From Candidatus Nanopelagicales bacterium (lineage in GTDB: Bacteria; Actinomycetota; Actinomycetes; S36-B12; JBBQYX01), in assembly GCA_038208295.1 (NCBI GenBank), contig JBBQYX010000005.1:14213-78212 (forward strand): DNA of 64,000 nt. Reading direction: 5' to 3'. The position numbers and the translations under genes are program-made. The notes under the pieces are model-generated. The model ran no database searches. It was not told where the DNA came from and saw only the letters and a list, made by a program, of their open reading frames with translations. This document shows positions 35,345 through 49,961 of the stretch, piece by piece; the stretch's first letter is position 1; the number at the start of each line of letters is the position of its first letter.

Positions 35345-37018
35345 TCACTCCGTCGGCGGGCCGGCCACCGGCTCCGACGTGGTCGTCAGGTGGCCGTCGG
35401 GACTCTGCACCGCTACGAGCCGTACCCGCCAGTGGGCATCGTCTGGTGCGGGAAAGTCTTCTCGCCAGTGTGATCCGCGGGTTTCTCGCCGCGCGGCGGC
35501 GTGGTCCACCAGGACGCTGGCCAGGGTGTGCAGGTTGGTCGACTCCCAACTATCCGTACACGGCTGCCCCGGCTGACCGTGGGTCAGCTCGTCGAGTTCG
35601 GTCGCCGTTGCCGCCAGGGACTTCTCACTGCGGAGAACTCCGGCACCGTGCGCCATGAGTTGCTGCAGGGGACGCCGTACGGCACCGGGCAGCGCAATCC
35701 CCGGCCCCGCGTCCGAGGGCTGCGGCTCACGCCGGGTCGGCAGTCCCTGGGCGAGTACCGCGCCGATCCGCTCGGCGAAGACCAAGCCCTCCAGGAGCGA
35801 GTTCGACGCCAGCCGGTTTGCCCCATGGACGCCGCTGCACGCCACCTCACCGCAAGCGAACAGCCCGGGCACCGACGCCCGGCCGTCGACGTCGGTCCGC
35901 ACCCCACCGCTGGCGTAATGCTGGGCAGGTGCCACCGGGATGAGGTCCACCACCGGGTCGATGCCGTGCTCCCGGCAAGAATCGAGAATGGTGGGGAACC
36001 GCCGGCGCCACAGCGCTTCGCCGAATCGGCGCCCGTCCAGCCACACGTGTGCGGCCCCCGTCTGCAACATCCGGTGCATGATCGCCTTGGCGACCACGTC
36101 CCGCGGGGCGAGTTCGGCCAGCGGGTGCTGGCCCAGCATGAATCGGACCCCGTCGTCGTCGACGAGGACCGCCCCCTCGCCGCGGACGGCCTCGCTGACC
36201 AGCGGCTGCTGACCCCGGGCATCGGCGCCCAGATACATCACGGTCGGGTGGAACTGCACGAACTCCAGATCCGCGATGGCAGCACCCGCACGCAGCGCGA
36301 GCGCGACCCCGTCGCCGGTCGCAACAGACGGATTCGTCGTCTGCGCGAAGACCTGCCCCAAGCCGCCGGTCGCCAGCACCACCGCGGGCGCCAGGGCGGC
36401 GCCAACACCGTCGCCGCGGCCCTCACCCATGACGTGCAAGCTGACGCCCTGCGCGGCTCCGGTGGCATCGCGCAGTAGGTCCAGGGCGAGTGCCTGCTCG
36501 ACCAGTTCAATGCCGAGATCCAGGGCCACCGCAGCCACCAGCGCGCGGGAAATCTCCGCGCCCGTCGCGTCCCCGCCGGCATGCGCGATCCGATCCCGCA
36601 GATGCCCGCCCTCGCGGGTCAGCTCGATGCCGCCGGCCGCGTCGGTGTCGAACCGGGCACCGATCGTGATCAGCCGGCGTACTGCGTCAGGTCCCTGGGT
36701 GACCAGGATGCGTACGGCCTCGGGATCGCACAGCCCCGCCCCGGCCACCAACGTGTCCCGCAGATGCTCCTGCGGGGAGTCCTCCTCCGACAGCGCCGCC
36801 GCGATCCCGCCCTGTGCCCAGCGCGTCGAGCCCTCGTCGACCCGGGCCTTGGTGACCAGCAGCACCCGCAGCCCCACCTGTCGGGCCTGCAAGGCGACCG
36901 ACAACCCGGCGACCCCGGAACCGACGACGACCACATCGGCCGTTGTGGTCCAGCCCGGCTCGGCGGCCCGTAACCGCCGGGGCAGCACCAGCGGGCCGGC
37001 GTCGTGACGGCCGGTCAT
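35345..37018 (-). CDS. nadB: L-aspartate oxidase
   Basis: 557 aa. FAD motif VVVVGSGVAGLS, AQGGIAA, HPT...EA(V)RGEGA. Confidence 0.95.
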   Translation of the reverse strand: MTGRHDAGPLVLPRRLRAAEPGWTTTADVVVVGSGVAGLSVALQARQVGLRVLLVTKARVDEGSTRWAQGGIAAALSEEDSPQEHLRDTLVAGAGLCDPEAVRILVTQGPDAVRRLITIGARFDTDAAGGIELTREGGHLRDRIAHAGGDATGAEISRALVAAVALDLGIELVEQALALDLLRDATGAAQGVSLHVMGEGRGDGVGAALAPAVVLATGGLGQVFAQTTNPSVATGDGVALALRAGAAIADLEFVQFHPTVMYLGADARGQQPLVSEAVRGEGAVLVDDDGVRFMLGQHPLAELAPRDVVAKAIMHRMLQTGAAHVWLDGRRFGEALWRRRFPTILDSCREHGIDPVVDLIPVAPAQHYASGGVRTDVDGRASVPGLFACGEVACSGVHGANRLASNSLLEGLVFAERIGAVLAQGLPTRREPQPSDAGPGIALPGAVRRPLQQLMAHGAGVLRSEKSLAATATELDELTHGQPGQPCTDSWESTNLHTLASVLVDHAAARRETRGSHWREDFPAPDDAHWRVRLVAVQSPDGHLTTTSEPVAGPPTE

Positions 37019-37914
37019 CCGCGTATCCCCGGCCGGTCGGCCAGCGAGTCCAACAGCGCGGCTGCCTTATCGGGCCGCAAAACACCCTGCGCCAGGGCGC
37101 GATCCGCAGACAGCCGCGCCAGGGCGACATAGGCCGCGGTCGCGGTGCCACCCTCGGCCGCCAAGGCCTGCAGGTCGCTGCGTACGGCATCCGCATCCGC
37201 TCGCACCACCGGACCGTCCAACAGGGCGCCGCTGTCCGCTGCGGCGGCATCGGCGGCCGCCTGCACCAGGGGGCCCAGGACCCGCTCGGGCCGGCCGATC
37301 CCGGCGCTGCGCAATACGTCCCACGCCTCGCCGACCAGGGCGCGCAGGTGGGGCCCGACCAGCACCAGCGCCGCGTGCAACGCCGGGCGGGCCTCCTCCG
37401 GCACCCAGACCGGCTCCCCGCCCATCTCCACCGCCAGCGCCTCGGCCACCGGCCGAAGTGCGGGCGGGGCGGTCACCGCGATCGGGCAGCCGTCCAGCCG
37501 CGTCACATCCAGGCTGGTCCCGGTCAGGCTCAGCATCGGGTGCAGGGCCAGCGGCAGTGCGCCCGCAGAGGTGGCGCGGTCCAGCACCGCCGTGCCGTAC
37601 CGGGGCGAGGCATGCAGCCAAAACGCCCCCGGCCGCAGCGCACCGGTGTCCACCAGCCCCATCACCAGCCGCGGCAGCTCCTCGTCCGGGACCGTGAGCA
37701 GGACGAGATCAGCATCGGCCACCACCTCCGCCGGGGGCAGCACTCGCGCGTGCGGCAGAAACTCCTCGACTCGATCCCGGCTCGCCTGGGACACGGCAGT
37801 CACGGCCGTCACCCGATGTCCGGCCCTGTTCAGGGCCGCCCCGAGCAGGCAGCCCGCGCGGCCCGCGCCGAGGACGCCGACCGTCAACCGGGCCGGCGCG
37901 GTCGGTGGGGACAC
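37015..37914 (-). CDS. Rossmann-fold NAD(P)-binding protein with DUF2520-type C-terminus
   Basis: GVLGAGRAGCLLGAALNRAGHRV...DLVLLTVPDEEL. ATGA overlap with the nadB start. Same synteny slot as the mycobacterial DUF2520 gene. Confidence 0.75.
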   Translation of the reverse strand: MSPPTAPARLTVGVLGAGRAGCLLGAALNRAGHRVTAVTAVSQASRDRVEEFLPHARVLPPAEVVADADLVLLTVPDEELPRLVMGLVDTGALRPGAFWLHASPRYGTAVLDRATSAGALPLALHPMLSLTGTSLDVTRLDGCPIAVTAPPALRPVAEALAVEMGGEPVWVPEEARPALHAALVLVGPHLRALVGEAWDVLRSAGIGRPERVLGPLVQAAADAAAADSGALLDGPVVRADADAVRSDLQALAAEGGTATAAYVALARLSADRALAQGVLRPDKAAALLDSLADRPGIRG

Positions 37915-38096: not shown

Positions 38097-39287
38097 TTGC
38101 ACGATCCAACTCGACCACGCCCGACCACTCGCAACGTCCGTCTCAGGGGCTGCGACGATCGGGCGGTGCCCAGCGACATCGTGACCGGGACGGACCCGAC
38201 GGGCCCGGAGGGACCGAATGGTGCGCCGGTAAGTCCCGTTGGCTGGCAGACGGCGTGGTCGCAGTCGCTGCAATCCTGGGCGGCCGACCCCGAAGGTCTG
38301 CCGGTCGAGCACTTCCGTACGTCAGTGCACGTCGGGGCAGAGTTCTTCGCCGCGCTGGCGCGCGTCGCGGTCGAGGTCGATGCCGGCCTGGGTCACCCAG
38401 ATAACCTCGACATCGTCGACGTCGGGGCAGGGGGCGGCGAACTGCTCGTCGGGCTGCTCTCGCACCTGCCAGCTGACGTCGCTGACCGGGTCCATTCAGT
38501 GGCGATCGACCTGAGAGCGCGTCCGGCATCGCTGGATGCCCGGGTGACGTGGCGGCGAGGTGCCGCTGATCAAGTCCTGCGCCAGGAGTTTCCCGAAGGG
38601 GTACGCGGGCTGCTGATCGCCCACGAGTTCCTCGACGAGATTCCCCTTGACGTCGTGCAGCGGGATGCCGACGGCGTGCGGCGACTCGTACTCGTTGACC
38701 CCGCCGCGGAGCTCGACGCAGCGCCGGTCGAGTTTCTCGGGCCAGCGCTGGACGACGGCGGCCGCTGTGCGCGGTTCGGCGTGGACGCCGCCCGCGCTCG
38801 AGCCTGGTTGGACACCTGGTGGCCGGACGACGGCAAACTCGACGGGTATCGAGCCGAAGTGGGCTGGCCACGGGACGAGGCATGGTCAGCACTCGTCGGG
38901 TCGGTGCGCGCTGGTACGGCACTCGCCATGGACTACGGCCACAGCCGGTCCGAACGAACGTCTGGCCGCCGACGACACGGCTCCCTCGCCGGTTACCGCC
39001 GCGGTCGGCACGTGGCGCCCTTACCCGATGGCCGCCGCAACCTCACCGCACACGTGGCCATCGATGCCTGCGTCGCCGCAGCGCCGCCGGGCTTCCGGAC
39101 AGTTGTGCAGTCGCAGCGAGAAGTTCTCCAGGAACTGGTCGACGACCTCCGGAACGCCGAAACCCTCGCCACCCAACTGCAGCGCACCAACGACCGTCGG
39201 GTGCTGATGGCACCGGCCGGCCTGGGCGCCATGATCTGGCTACGGCACGACCGGGTCGGACCAACTAACTCATCGGCATCCGACTGA
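38097..39287 (+). CDS. SAM-dependent methyltransferase, MidA/DUF185-like
   Basis: IVDVGAGGGELL...LIAHEFLDEIPLDVV...ALAMDYGH pattern. The start is uncertain (TTG 38097 or GTG 38166). Confidence 0.65.
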   Translation: MHDPTRPRPTTRNVRLRGCDDRAVPSDIVTGTDPTGPEGPNGAPVSPVGWQTAWSQSLQSWAADPEGLPVEHFRTSVHVGAEFFAALARVAVEVDAGLGHPDNLDIVDVGAGGGELLVGLLSHLPADVADRVHSVAIDLRARPASLDARVTWRRGAADQVLRQEFPEGVRGLLIAHEFLDEIPLDVVQRDADGVRRLVLVDPAAELDAAPVEFLGPALDDGGRCARFGVDAARARAWLDTWWPDDGKLDGYRAEVGWPRDEAWSALVGSVRAGTALAMDYGHSRSERTSGRRRHGSLAGYRRGRHVAPLPDGRRNLTAHVAIDACVAAAPPGFRTVVQSQREVLQELVDDLRNAETLATQLQRTNDRRVLMAPAGLGAMIWLRHDRVGPTNSSASD

Positions 39288-39319: not shown

Positions 39320-40546
39320 TCAGCCGGTCACCGGCAACGTCTCGTAGCCACGCAGCACGAAGGACGGTCTGCGCACCGGGGCGGCCGCCAACTGCAGGCC
39401 CGGCAGCCGTTCCAGCAATATGGGCAGCGAGGTGGTGAGTTCCACCCGCGCCAGGGGCGCACCGAGGCAGAAGTGGATACCCACGCCGAAGGATAGGTGC
39501 GGGTTCGGGTCCCGCCGGGCATCGAAGGAGTCCGGCTCGGCGAATACCTCGGGGTCCCGGTTCGCCGAACCCAGCAGTGCGGAGATCTTGTCACCGGCCT
39601 GCAGCCGAACGCCGGCGACCTCGGTGTCGACCTTGGCGGTCCGCTCGAACAGGTGCAACGGGGAGTCGAAACGCAGCATCTCCTCCACTGTCGACGGGGC
39701 CAGGCCCCAGGGATCGGCGACGACAGCCGCCAATTGGTCCGGGTGCTGCAGCAGGGCGACGACACCATTGCCGAAACCATTGACGCTGGCCTCGTGCCCG
39801 GCGTTCAACAGCAACACGGCAGTCGCGATGAGTTCCTGCTCCGACAGGCGTTCACCCTCGACCCGGGCCTGCGCCAGGTCCGTGAGCAGGTCCTCCCCGG
39901 GGTGCCGCGTCCGGTCGGCGGCGAGTTCGCGCACGTATTGGGAGAACTCGGCGCACGCCCGCTGGGCACGGTCGTCCTGCTCGGGAGTCCGGTCGAGTTC
40001 GTACATCGCCACGATGTCCTGGGACCACGGACGCAACAGCGGCCGATCGGCGGCCGGGAAGCCAAGGAGTTCCGCGATGATGATGACCGGCAGCGGTTCG
40101 GCATAGTCAGCGAGCAGGTCGAACTGGCCGGTGTCCCGCAATTTCTCGGTCGCCGAGTCCAGCAGTCCCGCTGATGCCGCGCGGACCCGCGGCCGAAGCC
40201 GCTCGACATGCCCCCGGCCGAACGCCTGGGCGACCAGGCGGCGCAGCCGAGTGTGTTTGGGCGGTTCGGAGTCGAGGATCGAATCGGCGTGCAGCCAGTT
40301 GAACGTGTCCCACAACTCGATTGGTTCACGGGTGGTGAAGATGCGGCCCAGGTCCTTGTGCCGCAACACCGCGTTGACGTCGGCGTGCCGAGCCGCCAGC
40401 CAGCTGCCGGAGTCGGTGTCTCGCACCGGAGCGCCGACCGAGCGCATCCGGGCGAAAGCCGGGTAGGGGTCGGTCACGAACTCCGGGTCCGCGGGCCGGA
40501 AGCCAGCTGCTGCCGCATCCGGTGCAGTTGGCGAGTCGGCGGTCAC
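39320..40546 (-). CDS. cytochrome P450
   Basis: 408 aa. ExxR (VEEMLRFDSP) and the heme-thiolate loop FGVGIHFCLGAPLA. Its GTG overlaps the stop of the upstream gene (GTGA). Confidence 0.93.
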   Translation of the reverse strand: MTADSPTAPDAAAAGFRPADPEFVTDPYPAFARMRSVGAPVRDTDSGSWLAARHADVNAVLRHKDLGRIFTTREPIELWDTFNWLHADSILDSEPPKHTRLRRLVAQAFGRGHVERLRPRVRAASAGLLDSATEKLRDTGQFDLLADYAEPLPVIIIAELLGFPAADRPLLRPWSQDIVAMYELDRTPEQDDRAQRACAEFSQYVRELAADRTRHPGEDLLTDLAQARVEGERLSEQELIATAVLLLNAGHEASVNGFGNGVVALLQHPDQLAAVVADPWGLAPSTVEEMLRFDSPLHLFERTAKVDTEVAGVRLQAGDKISALLGSANRDPEVFAEPDSFDARRDPNPHLSFGVGIHFCLGAPLARVELTTSLPILLERLPGLQLAAAPVRRPSFVLRGYETLPVTG

Positions 40547-41919
40547 GATTCCGCTGCTCGGTTACCGGGCTCCGCCGACGCCATCCAACGCTGGGTGCCC
40601 GCGGCCGTGCGTGCGGCAGCCGCGCGCCGCAGTTGCGCCTCGGCGATGGCCCGTGCCTCGGCTGCCGGGCGGTGCAGCCCGCTGATCTGTACCGGTCCCG
40701 GGGTGGAGTCGACGTGGACCGATGCCAGTCCCAGCGCGCGTTCCCACGGCCCCTGGGTCACCCGTACGGACTGCGTACGGGCATGCGGGATCAGCGCCAG
40801 GTGATGCACCACCCGGCCACGAGCCGCTGCGAAGACATGCGCGTCGTGGCCGACCAGCAATCGGCGAAACTGGATCGGGGCTCGCCGCCGGGCGCGGCTG
40901 GGAACTGCGTGCATTTCCAGGGCGGTGACATCCACGCCGGGCAGGACGCGGGCGACCACGGACAGAGCGACCGGCCACGGCGCCACCGGCAGCAGGACGT
41001 TCTCCGTGTACGCGTCGTTGCCACTTCCCTGACTGCCCGTACCGACGCCGGCGACGTTGAGGGAAACTCGTACCCACCCTCGGCTGCGCCACAACCACGG
41101 CTCGGTGAACCCGACCGCCTGCACCCGGCCGGGTGGAACTGTCTGGGCCGACGTCTGCAGCAGCCCGTGCCGCAGTCGGAGTCCGTCAGGTGAATCGGCC
41201 ACGGTGAAGCCGAAGAACTTCGCGAACTCACTGAATACGGTCAGCAGTGGCAATCCACCGCCGATAATCACCAGCAGACCGGCCGTCCCGGCGGTGGCGA
41301 GCGCACCGACGACCACCAGGATCGTGAGCAGGAACAGCATGACCGTGGTGCCGCGCAACAACAACGACTTCAGTAGGTCACCGGTGGGCACCTGCACGAG
41401 GATCTGTTCCGGTGCCGCTCCTGCATCGTGCCGCAACCCCGCGGACCGGGCGATGATCTCGTCTCGCAGCACCTGTGCCTGGGCGACTGTCAGGTATTCC
41501 AGCGTCAGGCGCGAGTCGCCGGCGCCGGCGGCCTCGACGTGCAGGGCGGCCATACCTGCAATCCGGGCGATCAGCGGTTGGGTGACATCCACACTCTGCA
41601 ACCGTGACAACTGCAACCGCCGCTCGTTGCGGAACCAGACACCCGAGTTCATCCGCAGGTCGCCGTCCGCGTCGAACCAGAACGTCAACCGCCGCCAGGC
41701 GATCCAGCGGTAGGCCGCCACCAGCAGCCCGGCACCCACCGCCGTCCCGAACGCCACCGCGACACCGAGACCGGGAACTCCCGCACTCCACTGGGAGCCG
41801 AACGCGATCATTCCGATCAGCACAGCGGGCACGATTCGAGCGCCGTGCACGAACGGCGAGATGCGACTTACCCGTCGCGGTTCCCCCGATGCCGGGGGCT
41901 GCGTACCGCTCATGCTCAC
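40543..41919 (-). CDS. membrane protein with three bacterial PH (bPH_2) domains, YdbT-like
   Basis: 458 aa. Repeated TM hairpin plus the ...RLQLSRLQSVDVTQPLIARIAGMAALHVEAAG... type modules characteristic of YdbT. Confidence 0.8.
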   Translation of the reverse strand: MSMSGTQPPASGEPRRVSRISPFVHGARIVPAVLIGMIAFGSQWSAGVPGLGVAVAFGTAVGAGLLVAAYRWIAWRRLTFWFDADGDLRMNSGVWFRNERRLQLSRLQSVDVTQPLIARIAGMAALHVEAAGAGDSRLTLEYLTVAQAQVLRDEIIARSAGLRHDAGAAPEQILVQVPTGDLLKSLLLRGTTVMLFLLTILVVVGALATAGTAGLLVIIGGGLPLLTVFSEFAKFFGFTVADSPDGLRLRHGLLQTSAQTVPPGRVQAVGFTEPWLWRSRGWVRVSLNVAGVGTGSQGSGNDAYTENVLLPVAPWPVALSVVARVLPGVDVTALEMHAVPSRARRRAPIQFRRLLVGHDAHVFAAARGRVVHHLALIPHARTQSVRVTQGPWERALGLASVHVDSTPGPVQISGLHRPAAEARAIAEAQLRRAAAARTAAGTQRWMASAEPGNRAAES

Positions 41920-42485
41920 AACCCTGCGGACCGCTGCTCGCCCAGCGCAGCCAGCCGATCTCGCAGCCCGGCGGCGACATCCGGCGGAAGGCCGGGGATC
42001 GTGGCATCGGTGGTGGCGGCAGCGGTGTGCAACTGGACAGTGGCCACTCCCATCGCCCGGTCCAGCGGGCCGGCGGCGAGGTCGACGAGTTGCATCCGTC
42101 CGTACGGCACGATGACCAGGCGCCGGAACAGCACCCCGCTGGTGACCAGCAGGTCATCTGCTCGCTCGCTGTAACCGAACGAGGCAACGCGGCGGCCGAT
42201 GAACCACCAGCCCCACAGCACCCCGACGGCAGTCGCAGCGAGCACGAGGGCACCGATCCACTTCGGCACCGCCGGGAGCAGGAGCAGGAGCACCGCGGCG
42301 GCCAGCGGGAACACGGCCGTGATGGCCAGGCTGATGCGCCGAGCGGTGGCCAGTCGCGGGGACACCGGCGTCCACGGCGTACCGGCCGGTGCGAACGGGT
42401 CCGCGGCGCCTCGGTCCTGAAGTCCAACCGCCGACGCCGGATCCGGCGATTGCTGCTCGGCAGGCTGCGGCGCGTCAGGGGACAT
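41916..42485 (-). CDS. membrane protein with single bPH domain, YdbS-like
   Basis: 189 aa. TM hairpin then LLVTSGVLFRRLVIVPYGRMQLVDLAAGPLDRAMGVATVQLHTAA. GTGA overlap with the YdbT-like gene. Confidence 0.75.
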   Translation of the reverse strand: MSPDAPQPAEQQSPDPASAVGLQDRGAADPFAPAGTPWTPVSPRLATARRISLAITAVFPLAAAVLLLLLPAVPKWIGALVLAATAVGVLWGWWFIGRRVASFGYSERADDLLVTSGVLFRRLVIVPYGRMQLVDLAAGPLDRAMGVATVQLHTAAATTDATIPGLPPDVAAGLRDRLAALGEQRSAGL

Positions 42486-42555
42486 TCGTCGAGCCTACGG
42501 GTCGCTCCGGTGGCCGAGGTGCGGCCGGAGAGGGCTTTCGATCCCGCGTGGCAGC

Positions 42556-43872
42556 ATGCCGAGCGTGAGCCATTACGCGACGCCTGCTGCGACGCCTGCT
42601 GTGACGCCTGCTGGACCGTCCGCAGGCGAGGACCTGCTGGTCGGTGTGGGCGCGGTCCACGATGTCGACCTACTCCTCGATCTTGGGCCACTGCATCCGT
42701 CCGCGCACGGGGCGCTGCGACTGGCGCTGCGGCTGGACGGGGACCGGATCGTCGCCGTCGACCCGCGAGTCGGGGCACTGCACCGGGGGGCCGAGAAGCT
42801 GTTCGAGGTACGCGATTACCGCCAGGTGCTCATGTTGGCTGACCGGCACGACTGGCTGTCCGCCTTCGCCTCCGAGCTGCCCATCGCGCTGGCCGCGGAG
42901 TCCCTGCTCGGGATGCAGGTTCCGGCGCGCGCCACCTGGGCCCGCACCCTGCTCGCCGAACTCACCCGGGTGTCGGCGTCCCTGGCGTTCCTGGCCGCCA
43001 TCCCGGCCCCGACTGTGACCCCTGAACTCGGCGCTTCCCCAGGCGTATCTGCGGGCGTATCTTCGGGCGTATCTGCGGGCGTGTCTGCGGGCGAGTCTGC
43101 GGGCGCTGCTGAGCAACCTCCCCCGGCCTCGATCCCGGCCTACGCGACCGCGGGCACCGCCGCCCGGGAGGCGGTGCTGACCGCCTTCGAGCGAGCCACC
43201 GGTGGGCGCATCCACCTGATGGCCAACCGGGTCGGGGGCCTGGAGTACGACCTGTCCGCACAGTGGCTGGCCGAATTGCCCGCCGTCGTGAGCACGGTGC
43301 GGGCTGCGATGGAGCAGGTGTACGCGCTGCTGCGGAGCCCGCAGTTTCACCGGATGTACGCCGGCATCGGAGTGCTCGACCGGGATACCGCCATCGGCTT
43401 CGGAGTGTCCGGCCCGGTCGCCCGGGCCAGCGGGGTCGATACCGACCTGCGCCGTGACGAGCCACTGCTGGCCTACCCCGACCTGGGCGACTCGATGACC
43501 GTGGTGACCCGTACGGCAGGGGATGCGGCGGCCCGGCTGGAGGTGCTGGCCGATCAGGTCGAGGTGTCCCTACGCCTGGCGCTGGCGTGCGCCCAGCGGT
43601 TGGCGTCCTTACCGGCGGGAGTGGCGTTGCGGTTGCCCAAGGTGCTGCGGGTCCCGGTCGGCGCAACGTACGTGTGGACCGAGGCGCCGCTCGGCGTCAA
43701 CGGCTGCTACCTGGTGTCCCGTGGGGACCGGACTCCGTGGCGCTGCAAACTGCGTACCCCGTCCTTCGCCCACGCGCAGGCCCTGCCAGCGGTCCTCACC
43801 GGCGCCCGGCTGGCCGACCTGACCCCGATCCTGGCGTCGATGTTCTTTGTGATCGGCGACATCGACCGTTGA
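42556..43872 (+). CDS. stand-alone NuoD-like protein (complex I 49-kDa / NiFe-hydrogenase large subunit fold)
   Basis: 438 aa. LDLGPLHPSAHGALRLALRLDGDRIV...LHRGAEKL...RIHLMANRVGG... and the C-terminal LRTPSFAHAQALPAVLTGARLADLTPILASMFFVIGDIDR align along the whole remembered NuoD/Nqo4 sequence. No other nuo gene is in the window. Confidence 0.85.
   Translation: MPSVSHYATPAATPAVTPAGPSAGEDLLVGVGAVHDVDLLLDLGPLHPSAHGALRLALRLDGDRIVAVDPRVGALHRGAEKLFEVRDYRQVLMLADRHDWLSAFASELPIALAAESLLGMQVPARATWARTLLAELTRVSASLAFLAAIPAPTVTPELGASPGVSAGVSSGVSAGVSAGESAGAAEQPPPASIPAYATAGTAAREAVLTAFERATGGRIHLMANRVGGLEYDLSAQWLAELPAVVSTVRAAMEQVYALLRSPQFHRMYAGIGVLDRDTAIGFGVSGPVARASGVDTDLRRDEPLLAYPDLGDSMTVVTRTAGDAAARLEVLADQVEVSLRLALACAQRLASLPAGVALRLPKVLRVPVGATYVWTEAPLGVNGCYLVSRGDRTPWRCKLRTPSFAHAQALPAVLTGARLADLTPILASMFFVIGDIDR
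43042..43113 (+). repeat. 12-bp x6 in-frame tandem repeat inside the NuoD-like gene
   Basis: GGCGTATCTGCG-type units encoding GVSA/GVSS/GESA low complexity, inserted between conserved NuoD blocks. Confidence 0.9.
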
Positions 43873-43899: not shown

Positions 43900-44343
43900 T
43901 CAGCGCATCGATGGTCGCCGTGGAATGACGGGCGGCCACGGGTCGGCCACTGAGCCCAACACCACCGTACGGTCATCGTCGCGGCCGTCGACCTGACCCA
44001 CCCGATCAGCCAGCGCCCGCGCAAGGTGGTCGCTCAGGCCCGTGGCGGCATCAAGGCGTCGGCGCAGGTCGGTGACCTGGGACATGAGCAGCGCGATCTG
44101 GCCGCTCGGATCCGTCGCACCCGGCATCGTCGCAGTGTCCGCCGGCGCGACCGGCCGGCTGTCCAGCCGATGCTGCAACGCGGCGAGGTGCGCCTGCAGC
44201 CCCGCGACCGTGGCCGCGGACTCAGACCGGACCGCCCGCAGTTGGCTACGCGCCTGAGCCGTCTCCCGCTCCAGCCGTCCTAGTTCGGCGCGCAGCGCTG
44301 AGCGGCGGCGGGGACGTCGATGCCGTGCGGCGGTGTCGGGCAT
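43900..44343 (-). CDS. hypothetical coiled-coil protein
   Basis: 147 aa. Heptad-like LRAELGRLERETAQARSQLRAVRSE...LQAHLAALQHRL. Third-position GC is only moderately coding-like. No family recognised. Confidence 0.45.
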   Translation of the reverse strand: MPDTAARHRRPRRRSALRAELGRLERETAQARSQLRAVRSESAATVAGLQAHLAALQHRLDSRPVAPADTATMPGATDPSGQIALLMSQVTDLRRRLDAATGLSDHLARALADRVGQVDGRDDDRTVVLGSVADPWPPVIPRRPSMR

Positions 44344-44402: not shown

Positions 44403-45413
44403 CTACAGCAGGCCCTTGCTGCGCAGGTAGTCCTCGGCGACCGTCTTGGGGTCCTTGCGGTCGATGTCGACGGCCTTGTTCAACTCGATCAGCTCGTCGG
44501 TCGTCAACGCCGCGGAGACGCCGTTCAACGCATCCACCAGCGGCGCTTGGCTTCCCAGGTCACCGGAAACCACCGGGATGATGTTGTCGACGGTCTGCAG
44601 CTTCTTGTCGTCGTCCAGTACCTGCAGCCCCAGCGCCGAGACTCCCCCGTCGGAGGAGAACACCAGGCCAACGTCGATACTGCCCTGCTGCAGGGCCTTC
44701 TTGGTCAGCGGGCCGCCGGTGTCCAGCGACTTGAAACCGGCAAACTTCATGCCGTACGTGTTCTCCAGACCCTGCTGGCAGAACGGCCGGGTCGGGCACT
44801 CCGGCGGGCCACCGAGGGTGACGTCGTTCGACTTCGAATAGGCCGCCAGATCCGACAACGTGGTCAGATTGTTCTTGGTGGCGAACTCCTGGGTGACCGC
44901 AAACGCGTTCTGGTCAGCAGCCGGTGACGCTTCTAGCACTGTCAGATTCAGGGGTTCGGCCAGTGACCGCAGCGCCGTCACGGTGGCATCCAGGTCACCG
45001 GAGGCCATGGGCTTGGCCTGCGGACCGTTGGCCGCCTTGTTCAGAAACTCGGTCAAGGTGCCGACGTACTCGGGCGCCACCTGCACCTCGCCCTTCTGCA
45101 GCGCGGGCTGGACGACCTCGCGGGTGGTGAGTTCCTTGACGTCGGCGTTATATCCGGCCTTGTCGAGGACCGCCGCATACATCGACGCAATGATCTTGCT
45201 CTCGCCGAAGTTGAACGCCGCGATGGTCACGTCGCCGCTGCCCATCGCGGTGCTCTCCGACGGGCTGCTCGACGCCGCGGTCGTCTCAGTGGCGCTGGTC
45301 GCCGGGGTTGTGTCGCTTCCGCTGGACGACCCGCAACCGGTCAGAGCCAGGGCAAACGCCGCCAACGCCACCACCGGGAAGAGCCGGGACGCGCGTGATC
45401 GCGACAGATTCAT
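44403..45413 (-). CDS. glycine betaine/choline-type ABC transporter substrate-binding lipoprotein
   Basis: Inner ATG 45413. Lipobox ALALTGCGSS. OpuAC-family body (NFGESKIIASMYAAVL...PEYVGTL...). Confidence 0.88.
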   Translation of the reverse strand: MNLSRSRASRLFPVVALAAFALALTGCGSSSGSDTTPATSATETTAASSSPSESTAMGSGDVTIAAFNFGESKIIASMYAAVLDKAGYNADVKELTTREVVQPALQKGEVQVAPEYVGTLTEFLNKAANGPQAKPMASGDLDATVTALRSLAEPLNLTVLEASPAADQNAFAVTQEFATKNNLTTLSDLAAYSKSNDVTLGGPPECPTRPFCQQGLENTYGMKFAGFKSLDTGGPLTKKALQQGSIDVGLVFSSDGGVSALGLQVLDDDKKLQTVDNIIPVVSGDLGSQAPLVDALNGVSAALTTDELIELNKAVDIDRKDPKTVAEDYLRSKGLL

Positions 45414-45414
45414 G

Positions 45415-45476
45415 TTCGGTCCCGCCTTCTGTGTCCCGTGCGCTGGAAGCACACGCGTGTCTGGCGCGGGACCGAA
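45415..45476 (-). other. stem-loop abutting the SBP start codon
   Basis: Perfect 11-bp stem TTCGGTCCCGC (45415..45425) / GCGGGACCGAA (45466..45476). The arm nearest the gene ends 1 nt from the ATG and covers part of the GAAGGCGGG SD-like region. Confidence 0.35.
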
Positions 45477-45591
45477 GTGCCCCGCAGATGGCCTAGAACA
45501 CCACGGCATACGTAACAGCGCAATCCGCCATTCCCGGATCGTGACGCAGCGCACTCATCGGCCGGACGACCTGACAACCCCCCGGGAACTG

Positions 45592-48288: not shown

Positions 48289-48852
48289 TCAGGTCACGCC
48301 GGGCTCAGTCGCACGCGCCTCCGCCCGCCGGGTCTGGGCCGGCCAGGTGTTGTCGTCGATGTCGTCGACGAGATCCCGTGAGGTGCCCAGGGAGGTCGCC
48401 GCGTCCGGGTCCTCGGGGAGTCGGCACATCCGTTCGATCCACAAGGCGATGACCACCAGGCCGACAGCGCCCACCGCGCTGAGGACCGAAGCCCAGACCC
48501 GCTGCTGGCCCGCCTCGGTGCCGTACGCCGGCACCAGGCCCACCGCAGCACCGAGATAGAACCCGGCCACCAGCGACCCGGTCCGGGACGCGGCCATCGC
48601 CAGGGCGGCGGTCCGGGCGGCCATTAGGGGGTCCATGGGCCGCGCGTCCGGCTTGCGCTGCAGCCGCGGCCGGGCCAGCGCCCCCCACATGAACAGCGCG
48701 ATCGCGAACACCCACAGGGCGACGGGAGCGGTCCACGGCACGGGCAGTTGACGGTTTGCGGCTGCGTCGATGATCTGAACCAGACCCCAGCCGCCCACAG
48801 CGGCGACCGCGGCCCACACCAGCAGCACACGAACGCGGGTGGGGGTCATCAC
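48289..48852 (-). CDS. DUF3180 membrane protein
   Basis: Four predicted TM segments. It sits immediately downstream of folK, as in other actinobacteria. Confidence 0.8.
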   Translation of the reverse strand: MMTPTRVRVLLVWAAVAAVGGWGLVQIIDAAANRQLPVPWTAPVALWVFAIALFMWGALARPRLQRKPDARPMDPLMAARTAALAMAASRTGSLVAGFYLGAAVGLVPAYGTEAGQQRVWASVLSAVGAVGLVVIALWIERMCRLPEDPDAATSLGTSRDLVDDIDDNTWPAQTRRAEARATEPGVT

Positions 48853-49961
48853 TCCACCTTACGAGGCTGCTCGACGCCGCCATGAGACATCCAGCCGGGA
48901 TCAGACATCCGGCCGCCCGTTGGCAACCGCAGCTCCAGGTCGTCGCGCCGACGACAGGCAGGCCGCCCGGCCGGCCCTGCGGAGTCGTCGGCAGGATCAC
49001 GAACAAGGTCGCCACCGCGGTGGTCACGTGAGTCGTCAACGAGGTCGCCAACAAGTGCGGCGGCGAGCGTACGAACCGGGCCGTGCCCGGGCAGGTACGC
49101 CGTCGGATCGGCTTCGGCCCAGGGGATGAGGACGAACCCGCGGGAGTGCGCCCGCGGATGCGGCAGCGTCAACGCCGGCTCGTCGCAGACCAGGTCCCCC
49201 ACCGCCAGCACGTCGACATCCAGCGTCCGAGGCCCCCAGCGGACTGCCCGTTCACGCTGCCACGCCCGCTCGGCGCGCTGGGCGGCCGCCAGCAACTCGC
49301 CCGGATCCAACTCGGACTGAACGACGAGGACCGCGTTGAGATAGTCAGGCTGCTCCGGACCGCCGACCGGAGTCGTCTCGTACACCCCGGACACCGCCAC
49401 CGCCTCGATCCCGGGCGTCGCGCACAGCAACGCGACCGCACCCTGCAAGGCTGCAGCCGGGTCGCCCACGTTGGCGCCCAGCCCGAAGGCGGCCCGTCGC
49501 GGGCTGACGGCGGCCGGCTGCGGGGTGGGCGATGGGACCGAGGGCGCCGTCACAGCAGGTCCTGGTCCGTTGCCGGGCGCAGGCGGCGCATCGTCCCGGG
49601 TCCGTCGGATCGAGACGATCAGGTCGGTGAACGGCACCGGAACCGGCGCCTGCGGCTTGTGGACCCGCACCTGAACCCACGCGACCAGCCGGTGCGTCAG
49701 GCAGCCGTCGGCGATGCGCTGGGCCAGTGTCTCGATCAGGTCGACCGGCGGGCCCTCGATCACCGCGACCACGTCCTGGGCCAGCGTCCCGTAGTCGACC
49801 GTCATCGACAGGTCGTCCCCGGCGGCAGCCGTCCGGGTGTCCAGTCCGATGACCACATCCACGACGAACTCCTGCCCATCGCGCCGCTCGTGCGCGAAGA
49901 CGCCGTGATGGCCCCGCCCCCGTAGCCCGACCAATTCGATACGGTCCGCCGGCTCGTTCAC
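48849..49961 (-). CDS. fused dihydroneopterin aldolase / HPPK (FolB-FolK)
   Basis: N-terminal DRIELVGLRGRGHHGVFAHERRDGQEFVVDV (FolB). A Pro-rich linker. Then AAFGLGANVGDPAAAL...YETTPVGGPEQPDYLNAV...WGPRTLDVDVL...LPHPRAHSRGFVLIPW (FolK), plus an approximately 70-aa tail. Confidence 0.88.
   Translation of the reverse strand: MNEPADRIELVGLRGRGHHGVFAHERRDGQEFVVDVVIGLDTRTAAAGDDLSMTVDYGTLAQDVVAVIEGPPVDLIETLAQRIADGCLTHRLVAWVQVRVHKPQAPVPVPFTDLIVSIRRTRDDAPPAPGNGPGPAVTAPSVPSPTPQPAAVSPRRAAFGLGANVGDPAAALQGAVALLCATPGIEAVAVSGVYETTPVGGPEQPDYLNAVLVVQSELDPGELLAAAQRAERAWQRERAVRWGPRTLDVDVLAVGDLVCDEPALTLPHPRAHSRGFVLIPWAEADPTAYLPGHGPVRTLAAALVGDLVDDSRDHRGGDLVRDPADDSAGPAGRPACRRRDDLELRLPTGGRMSDPGWMSHGGVEQPRKVE

Follow-up and report, generated by a model that had tools for sequence, protein, structure and literature searches.

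The 49-kDa subunit of respiratory complex I (NuoD, Nqo4 or NDUFS2) ligates quinone through a tyrosine (Thermus thermophilus Tyr87, bovine Tyr108, Escherichia coli Tyr277) and faces cluster N2 with several other residues: in Yarrowia lipolytica, R121 lies 3.7 Å from N2, R141 belongs to its second sphere, and H226 forms a hydrogen bond with it (PMC8042128). The arginine at the R121 position, Arg85 of bovine NDUFS2, is symmetrically dimethylated by the mitochondrial methyltransferase NDUFAF7 (PMC3829151). Here, a nuoD-like gene was analyzed in a 64,000-nucleotide stretch of DNA (the window) from a Candidatus Nanopelagicales bacterium of the Actinomycetota (assembly GCA_038208295.1, contig JBBQYX010000005.1, positions 14,213 to 78,212). 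The gene is intact and belongs to a large family of short-type NuoD paralogs that are encoded on their own; the family is monophyletic, is confined to Actinomycetota as far as sampled, and has tryptophan at the position of the quinone tyrosine. A gene of the NDUFAF7/MidA methyltransferase family is its most informative neighbor. Residue roles were taken from the two studies cited above, and equivalences from a MAFFT alignment with E. coli NuoCD.

A stand-alone NuoD family with tryptophan at the quinone-tyrosine position

The open reading frame (ORF) starts with ATG and encodes 438 amino acids without interruption; its codon-position GC (0.76/0.54/0.84) is usual for genes of this 69% GC window. 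The product matches the Pfam family PF00346 (Complex1_49kDa) with E = 8.5e-52, and its top sequence matches in the PDB, obtained with HMMER, are NDUFS2/NuoD chains at ~190 bits. An AlphaFold2 (AF2) model built on 114 relatives reached a predicted template-modeling score (pTM) of 0.85, and a Foldseek search with this model returned complex I NuoD chains as best matches (TM 0.74-0.85). Model confidence is low in the C-terminus and the HRG loop, a pattern that a protein modeled without its partner would be expected to show. The original prediction, made from the letters of the window, had described a full-length NuoD homolog outside any nuo operon. This description was confirmed: a tblastn search of the whole 64-kb window with 13 E. 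coli Nuo proteins found nothing beyond the NuoD part, and none of 85 loci had another nuo gene within 10 kb. The protein reaches none of the NuoD equivalog cut-offs of NCBIfam (276 bits vs. 360 for NF004739 and 269 bits vs. 459 for TIGR01962), supporting the view that it would not be the catalytic NuoD subunit of complex I. Assignment as the large subunit of a group 4 [NiFe]-hydrogenase (HycE, EchE or Mbh) was also considered and rejected, as the protein contains no CxxC, the corresponding motifs being HRGAEK and GDIDR, and hydrogenase matches are poor (E of 0.0086 for models, and 7e-4 or worse in the PDB).

The closest database relative shares 55% identity with the window protein and is followed by thousands of actinobacterial proteins of 380-450 amino acids; in a scan with one genome per species, at least 589 species had a relative. 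The best 80 genome loci all belong to Actinomycetota, except for one contig of a metagenome-assembled genome (MAG) labeled Gemmatimonadota (L012), and include Streptomyces, Kitasatospora, Nonomuraea, Actinomadura, Streptosporangium, Nocardioidaceae, Geodermatophilaceae, Kineosporiaceae, and a Micromonospora MAG. When 1.84 billion 50%-identity representatives were searched, the signature [AN][ND]RHDW was found in ~100 of the best 150 clusters. The window protein carries this signature as ADRHDW, together with His220 and the short-type architecture described below. In a neighbor-joining (NJ) tree, which is a distance method only, the RHDW sequences form a single clade that contains the window protein. 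The corresponding bipartition was recovered in 40/40 bootstraps with P0147 counted as a member; this protein reads RQDW and is the sole sequence that breaks the motif-defined clade in all 40 replicates. NCBIfam has no dedicated model for the family, many database records bear the name "NADH-quinone oxidoreductase subunit D" and a few "NuoD-related protein," and one relative (P0080) passes the NCBIfam NuoD cut-off and so carries the NuoD name. In the literature on NDUFAF7/MidA in actinobacteria, SCO3392, and orphan NuoD paralogs, neither the family nor its link to a methyltransferase was found described. The family is an uncharacterized variant of a well-known kind of protein. Two proteins outside the RHDW clade, P0244 (519 amino acids) and P0260 (500 amino acids), read DRMDW and have Thr at the His220 position; these fused or extended proteins may represent an independent Tyr-to-Trp change.

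The residues that face N2 are conserved throughout the clade. Arg77, in the HRGAE motif, corresponds to bovine Arg85 and Y. lipolytica R121 and is Arg in 83/83 clade representatives; Arg97, corresponding to Y. lipolytica R141 and E. coli R274, is kept in 82/83; and His220, the counterpart of Y. lipolytica H226, is His in 82/83 clade representatives vs. 6/45 in the sample of other NuoD-type proteins. The quinone head-group site follows a different pattern. Trp100 takes the position of the quinone-ligating Tyr, with the canonical DRLDY/DRIEY aligned to DRHDW both by HMMER to PDB chains and by MAFFT to E. coli NuoCD, and Trp occurs there in 83/83 clade representatives and in 82/83 locus-derived sequences. 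His98 is clade-specific and invariant (83/83), whereas other NuoD-type proteins have Leu, Met or Ile there and Tyr at the Trp100 position; Asp87 is likewise clade-specific and invariant. The HPSAH sequence of the beta1-beta2 loop contains two histidines, both present in 83/83 locus-derived sequences. His47 is conserved across the clade. His51, the equivalent of T. thermophilus His38, is retained in the window protein, as had been claimed, and is present in only 48/83 clade representatives. Among the deep members, P0160 and P0184 have Ala at the His51 position, while P0139 has His and reads HRS instead of HRG.

The clade also differs from the long-type NuoD of E. coli and mitochondria in lacking a helix of ~25 residues, with 16-17 amino acids where E. 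coli has 42, and it aligns as one contiguous match to short-type NuoD or FpoD models such as PRK12322. All 29 columns invariant over 83 relatives and all 85 columns invariant in alignment A3 are retained in the window protein. Judged from this conservation pattern, selection has retained the N2-facing side of the protein and released the quinone head-group site, which is remodeled by the replacement of Tyr with Trp, an invariant His98, a His38 equivalent that is dispensable in deeper branches, and a hypervariable adjoining loop.

This loop follows the Asp139 equivalent and corresponds to residues 151-203 of the window protein. It is 53 amino acids long here, 13-19 amino acids in 78/114 relatives, and 24-60 amino acids in 36/114, where it consists of Ala/Gly/Glu-rich low-complexity sequence. 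The window loop is predicted to be disordered (predicted local distance difference test, pLDDT, <50 over residues 156-178) and contains a 12-bp tandem repeat, in which slippage of the unit would have enlarged the variable loop. Such a repeat had been noted originally with six copies inserted in place of a conserved helix-loop; it is real, but has 5.3 copies according to Tandem Repeats Finder (TRF), and it lengthens a region that is hypervariable family-wide. The (GVSA)n expansion is one more independent loop lengthening and ordinary by itself. A second 12-bp repeat lies near the N-terminus, where a tail of 18-77 amino acids is found across the family and residues 1-19 of the window protein are disordered (pLDDT <50). 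Thus, the altered tyrosine and the insertion, both reported earlier as features of this gene, are indeed present, but they are traits of the whole family.

A methyltransferase neighbor and the Candidatus Actinomarina operon

The earlier description of the neighborhood overlooked a gene of the NDUFAF7/MidA family (PF02636) located 3.3 kb upstream of the NuoD-like gene. Its product keeps the S-adenosylmethionine (SAM) motif VDVGAGGGELL, together with HFRTS and EFLDEIP, and shows an internal insertion, a C-terminal deletion, and no N-terminal ALYG...GFY motif. The conserved region starts near 38235 and the ORF runs ~45 codons further upstream, so the true start is probably later than 38097. A profile of the actinobacterial methyltransferases (A2) matched the PDB entries 4f3n (7e-24), 1zkd (9e-20), and 5ztz, the Dictyostelium NDUFAF7 homolog (1.4e-14), while the window sequence alone gave no match in the PDB.

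The NuoD-like gene lies between pan/nad and fol genes (DUF3180-folK-folB-folP) in essentially every related locus, and the methyltransferase gene is found within 10 kb of it in 68/80 genome loci; in 15 of these the two are direct neighbors on one strand, with the methyltransferase gene first. In the minimal arrangement, panC-DUF2520 is followed by the methyltransferase and NuoD-like genes and then by DUF3180-folK. A reverse search of metagenomes with the methyltransferase profile found a NuoD-like gene in 31 of the 33 loci whose sequence extends 2.5 kb or more downstream. It was the next gene on the same strand in 23 loci, and in ~15 it came next but on the opposite strand, the arrangement found in Streptomyces. 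The methyltransferase gene is the most informative neighbor of the NuoD-like gene. In the window, the two are separated by a P450-bPH-bPH operon, an arrangement common to Actinomadura and Actinoallomurus loci, and insertion of this operon may have split a two-gene methyltransferase/NuoD-like module. In 35/80 genome loci, two bPH_2 membrane proteins resembling YdbS/YdbT are encoded upstream of, and divergently from, the NuoD-like gene; a P450 is present in 29/80. The deep clade members P0139, P0160, and P0184 (L167-L172), one lineage of which has 51% GC, also occupy a slot between pan/lsr2 and fol genes.

A NuoD of the Trp type was also found within a complete nuo operon. Protein P0187, which is 97% identical to a record named as the NuoD of Candidatus Actinomarina, reads NRIDW, contains HRG and His220, and is among the closest relatives outside the clade and the nearest of those encoded in an operon. 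In the NJ tree it falls outside the RHDW clade, and it has Ile at the His98 position; it shares 46% identity over the full length with a stand-alone member from Nonomuraea. Its gene belongs to an 11-subunit operon, nuoA-B-C-D-H-I-J-K-L-M-N, beside a heliorhodopsin gene on a 34% GC contig (L175/L176, 8603-19597), and this operon is directly followed by a PF02636 gene, htpX, and a rhodanese gene. The succession of the Ca. Actinomarina operon and NDUFAF7 is noted in passing in a preprint, in which the Trp is not mentioned (bioRxiv 10.1101/2021.02.01.429150). The presence of a Trp-type NuoD inside a complete nuo operon argues that Trp alone does not exclude a NuoD from complexes with NuoB and, together with the conserved N2-facing residues, that pairing of the stand-alone protein with a NuoB-type subunit remains likely. 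These comparisons suggest that the stand-alone genes may descend from an 11-subunit system like that of Ca. Actinomarina.

Possible roles of the stand-alone protein

The reading tentatively preferred here, at somewhat less than an even chance, is that the PF02636 methyltransferase would dimethylate Arg77, as NDUFAF7 does on NDUFS2, and that the methylated protein would then dock on the NuoB-type N2 subunit of a canonical complex I encoded elsewhere. The docked protein would serve as an alternative, regulatory or assembly-stage subunit of the Q-module, incapable of Tyr/His-assisted quinone protonation, and would probably be what remains of an ancestral complex I-like enzyme with 11 subunits. 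A more far-reaching version, in which the Trp-type protein and the methyltransferase are the surviving core of that enzyme and the methylated paralog replaces or exchanges with NuoD on NuoB/N2, thereby controlling complex I assembly or activity, is considered unlikely. The original prediction had proposed that the protein cannot work as in complex I and is a repurposed quinone- or ligand-binding module; this conclusion as a whole exceeds the data, given the retained N2-facing residues and the Ca. Actinomarina operon. Several observations weigh against a methylation-dependent docking on NuoB. No dedicated NuoB or NuoC gene stands beside the NuoD-like gene, and conservation of the N2-facing residues may reflect requirements within the protein itself. 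The methyltransferase link is not universal, with no such gene within 8 kb at the P0139, P0160, and P0184 loci, and passive synteny could account for part of it, as the region is a vertically inherited backbone. Among about 70 relatives, none is more divergent than the window methyltransferase (median identity 39%), and the window copy of the NuoD-like protein has 24 private changes at columns conserved at ≥95%, vs. ≤9 in other close relatives; the divergence of both proteins makes relaxed constraint possible.

The main competing explanation is that of a soluble, complex I-independent protein whose remodeled pocket (Trp100, His98) would bind or transform a small ligand, with the methyltransferase either modifying it or being unrelated. 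Such a role is compatible with the lack of any other nuo gene within 10 kb in all 85 loci, the altered quinone ligands and variable His38 equivalent, the clade-specific invariant His98 and Asp87, and the deep members without a nearby methyltransferase, and the pan/fol housekeeping location suggests a general cellular role. It is nonetheless rather unlikely: Arg77, Arg97, and His220, which are invariant, face N2; hypervariability and disordered low-complexity inserts in the pocket loop would be odd for a selected ligand site; and a Trp-type NuoD occurs within the full nuo operon of Ca. Actinomarina. Moreover, no large subunit of the NuoD/hydrogenase fold is known to be stable without its small-subunit partner. 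The methyltransferase could also owe its location to passive synteny alone and act on canonical NuoD or another substrate, considering that panC, DUF2520, DUF3180, and the fol genes are equally syntenic yet functionally unrelated, that the bPH pair, P450, an ATP-binding cassette (ABC) transporter, and DoxX are often encoded between the two genes, and that the deep members have no methyltransferase. However, the pair persists through inversion and rearrangement, such as the tail-to-tail order in Streptomyces, is directly adjacent in many families, and appears again in quite another setting, with a PF02636 gene following the Trp-type nuo operon of Ca. Actinomarina. In addition, the only known substrate of the eukaryotic ortholog is the NuoD ortholog (PMC3829151), and passive synteny as the whole explanation is judged quite improbable.

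Two further explanations concern the status of the gene itself. The original prediction had allowed that it might prove to be a decaying duplicate or that careful alignment might restore the Tyr, with other nuo genes adjacent outside the window; neither was borne out, the ORF being intact and Trp100 standing at the Tyr position in the alignments. A duplicate or relic under relaxed selection would fit the most divergent copy among close relatives, with private substitutions at conserved sites that include N96D, H142S, and Y384C, as well as the two in-frame, microsatellite-like expansions and the divergence of the partner methyltransferase, which has lost its N-terminal ALYG/GFY motif. In contrast, the 438-codon ORF is intact with a gene-like third-position GC (GC3) of 0.84, all clade-invariant residues are retained, and the repeats sit in regions that vary throughout the family. 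Nor is the window copy a long branch in the broad family NJ tree (0.46 vs. a median of 0.67), and housekeeping genes of the window are also distant from the comparison set (64% identity for folP vs. a median of 75%), so that much of the divergence can be attributed to phylogenetic distance. Decay is thus very improbable. Virtually no credence is given to the idea of a genuine catalytic NuoD from a split nuo operon with its other genes outside the window. That idea draws on the name "NADH-quinone oxidoreductase subunit D" in many records and on the passing score of P0080, but the window protein falls below every equivalog cut-off, has Trp in place of the essential Tyr, belongs to a clade separate from the operon NuoDs, and represents an orphan position that is the same in hundreds of species. 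Species with the orphan gene, such as Streptomyces, are known to have complete nuo operons elsewhere. The split-operon explanation was rejected on the basis of residue signature, tree, and synteny.

Genomic setting and comparison with known systems

The window contains clpC-lsr2-lysS-nadC-nadB-DUF2520 (-), the PF02636 methyltransferase gene (+), P450-bPH-bPH (-), the NuoD-like gene (+), a gene of an OpuAC ABC transporter, and DUF3180-folB/K-folP-folE-ftsH (-), in this order. The features discussed are collected in the table. The NuoD-like gene is divergent from the bPH-bPH-P450 operon across 70 bp, as originally described; a scan of the region gave no match to a sigma-70-like promoter or a terminator, and an Rfam scan of the window was empty.

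Features of the NuoD-like gene and its surroundings (window positions)
Feature	Position	Strand	Basis and remarks
NDUFAF7/MidA-family methyltransferase gene (PF02636, Methyltransf_28)	38097..39287	+	Pfam, E 1e-18, 68 bits vs. cut-off 23
P450	39320-40546	-	Pfam
bPH_2 x3 protein	40543-41919	-	Pfam
bPH_2 protein	41916-42485	-	Pfam; gene start at 42485
Divergent intergenic region, 70 bp	42486..42555	.	Coordinates
Stand-alone Trp-type NuoD-related protein	42556..43872	+	438 aa; ORF, PF00346, NuoD fold, RHDW clade
12-bp tandem repeat, 3.1 copies (ATPAATPAVTPA), N-terminal tail	42577..42613	+	TRF
HPSAH, His47 and His51 of beta1-beta2 loop (E. coli H224/H228, old numbering)	42694..42708	+	Alignments
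HRGAE motif (Arg77 at 42784-42786)	42781..42795	+	Alignment offsets
RHDW signature (Arg97, His98, Asp99, Trp100)	42844..42855	+	Alignments
Expanded loop, residues 151-203, with Glu157 (Asp139/Asp160 equivalent)	43006..43164	+	Alignment, AF2 model
12-bp tandem repeat, 5.3 copies (GVSA GVSS GVSA GVSA GESA G)	43042..43105	+	TRF score 100, 92% matches
His220 (Y. lipolytica H226)	43213..43215	+	Alignment

Several other observations were made in the surrounding genes. A single ORF of 370 amino acids at 48849-49961 (-) contains FolB (residues 8-118) and HPPK/FolK (160-285) and may encode a fused bifunctional enzyme; folB and folK are separate genes in most related loci. At 35345-37914 (-), nadB directly abuts DUF2520; in related loci, panC is usually found beside these genes or between them, and a tblastn search with a panC query found no match anywhere in the window. 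The gene for the OpuAC (glycine-betaine-type substrate-binding) protein at 44403-45554 (-) coincides with a GC dip (0.635-0.66 vs. 0.69-0.72 around it), shows a first-position GC of just 0.61, which is unusually low, and may have been acquired more recently. Between it and the NuoD-like gene, a 147-amino-acid candidate ORF at 43900-44343 (-) has no Pfam match and failed the GC3 filter.

Hundreds of Actinomycetota genomes, including those of Streptomyces and other antibiotic producers, carry this conserved gene, usually annotated as "NuoD," and the label on Trp-type genes inflates or confuses complex I inventories and metabolic models. If the link to the methyltransferase holds, the pair would offer a genetically tractable bacterial system for studying how the methyltransferase recognizes the 49-kDa subunit and what role Arg dimethylation plays near N2. 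The Trp at the quinone-Tyr position in an 11-subunit operon is compatible with a membrane complex and hints at a kind of Q-site chemistry or regulation yet to be explored.

Among known systems, NuoD/Nqo4/NDUFS2 share with the window protein the fold (TM 0.74-0.85), the PF00346 domain, the Arg of HRGxE, the beta1-beta2 histidines, Arg97, His220, and the C-terminal GDxDR. The window protein differs from them in its location outside a nuo operon, in the Trp that replaces Tyr and the new His before Asp-Trp, in the missing ~25-residue helix and the hypervariable loop, and in its scores below the equivalog cut-offs. The 11-subunit, short-type NuoD of Ca. Actinomarina is alike in its short architecture, its Trp, and the accompanying PF02636 gene; however, it is encoded with NuoA, B, C, and H-N, whereas the window protein is encoded alone. 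As a conceptual precedent for a placeholder in complex I assembly, NDUFAF2 is an assembly factor paralogous to the subunit NDUFA12; the likeness is one of concept only, as neither has a sequence relationship to the Trp-type protein. The pair of NDUFAF7/MidA and NDUFS2 resembles the present locus in that a PF02636 enzyme is encoded near a NuoD-type protein in which the very Arg dimethylated in mitochondria is retained. Here, in contrast, the partner is a non-canonical, stand-alone paralog, the window enzyme is very divergent, and methylation is predicted by analogy with the mitochondrial pair.

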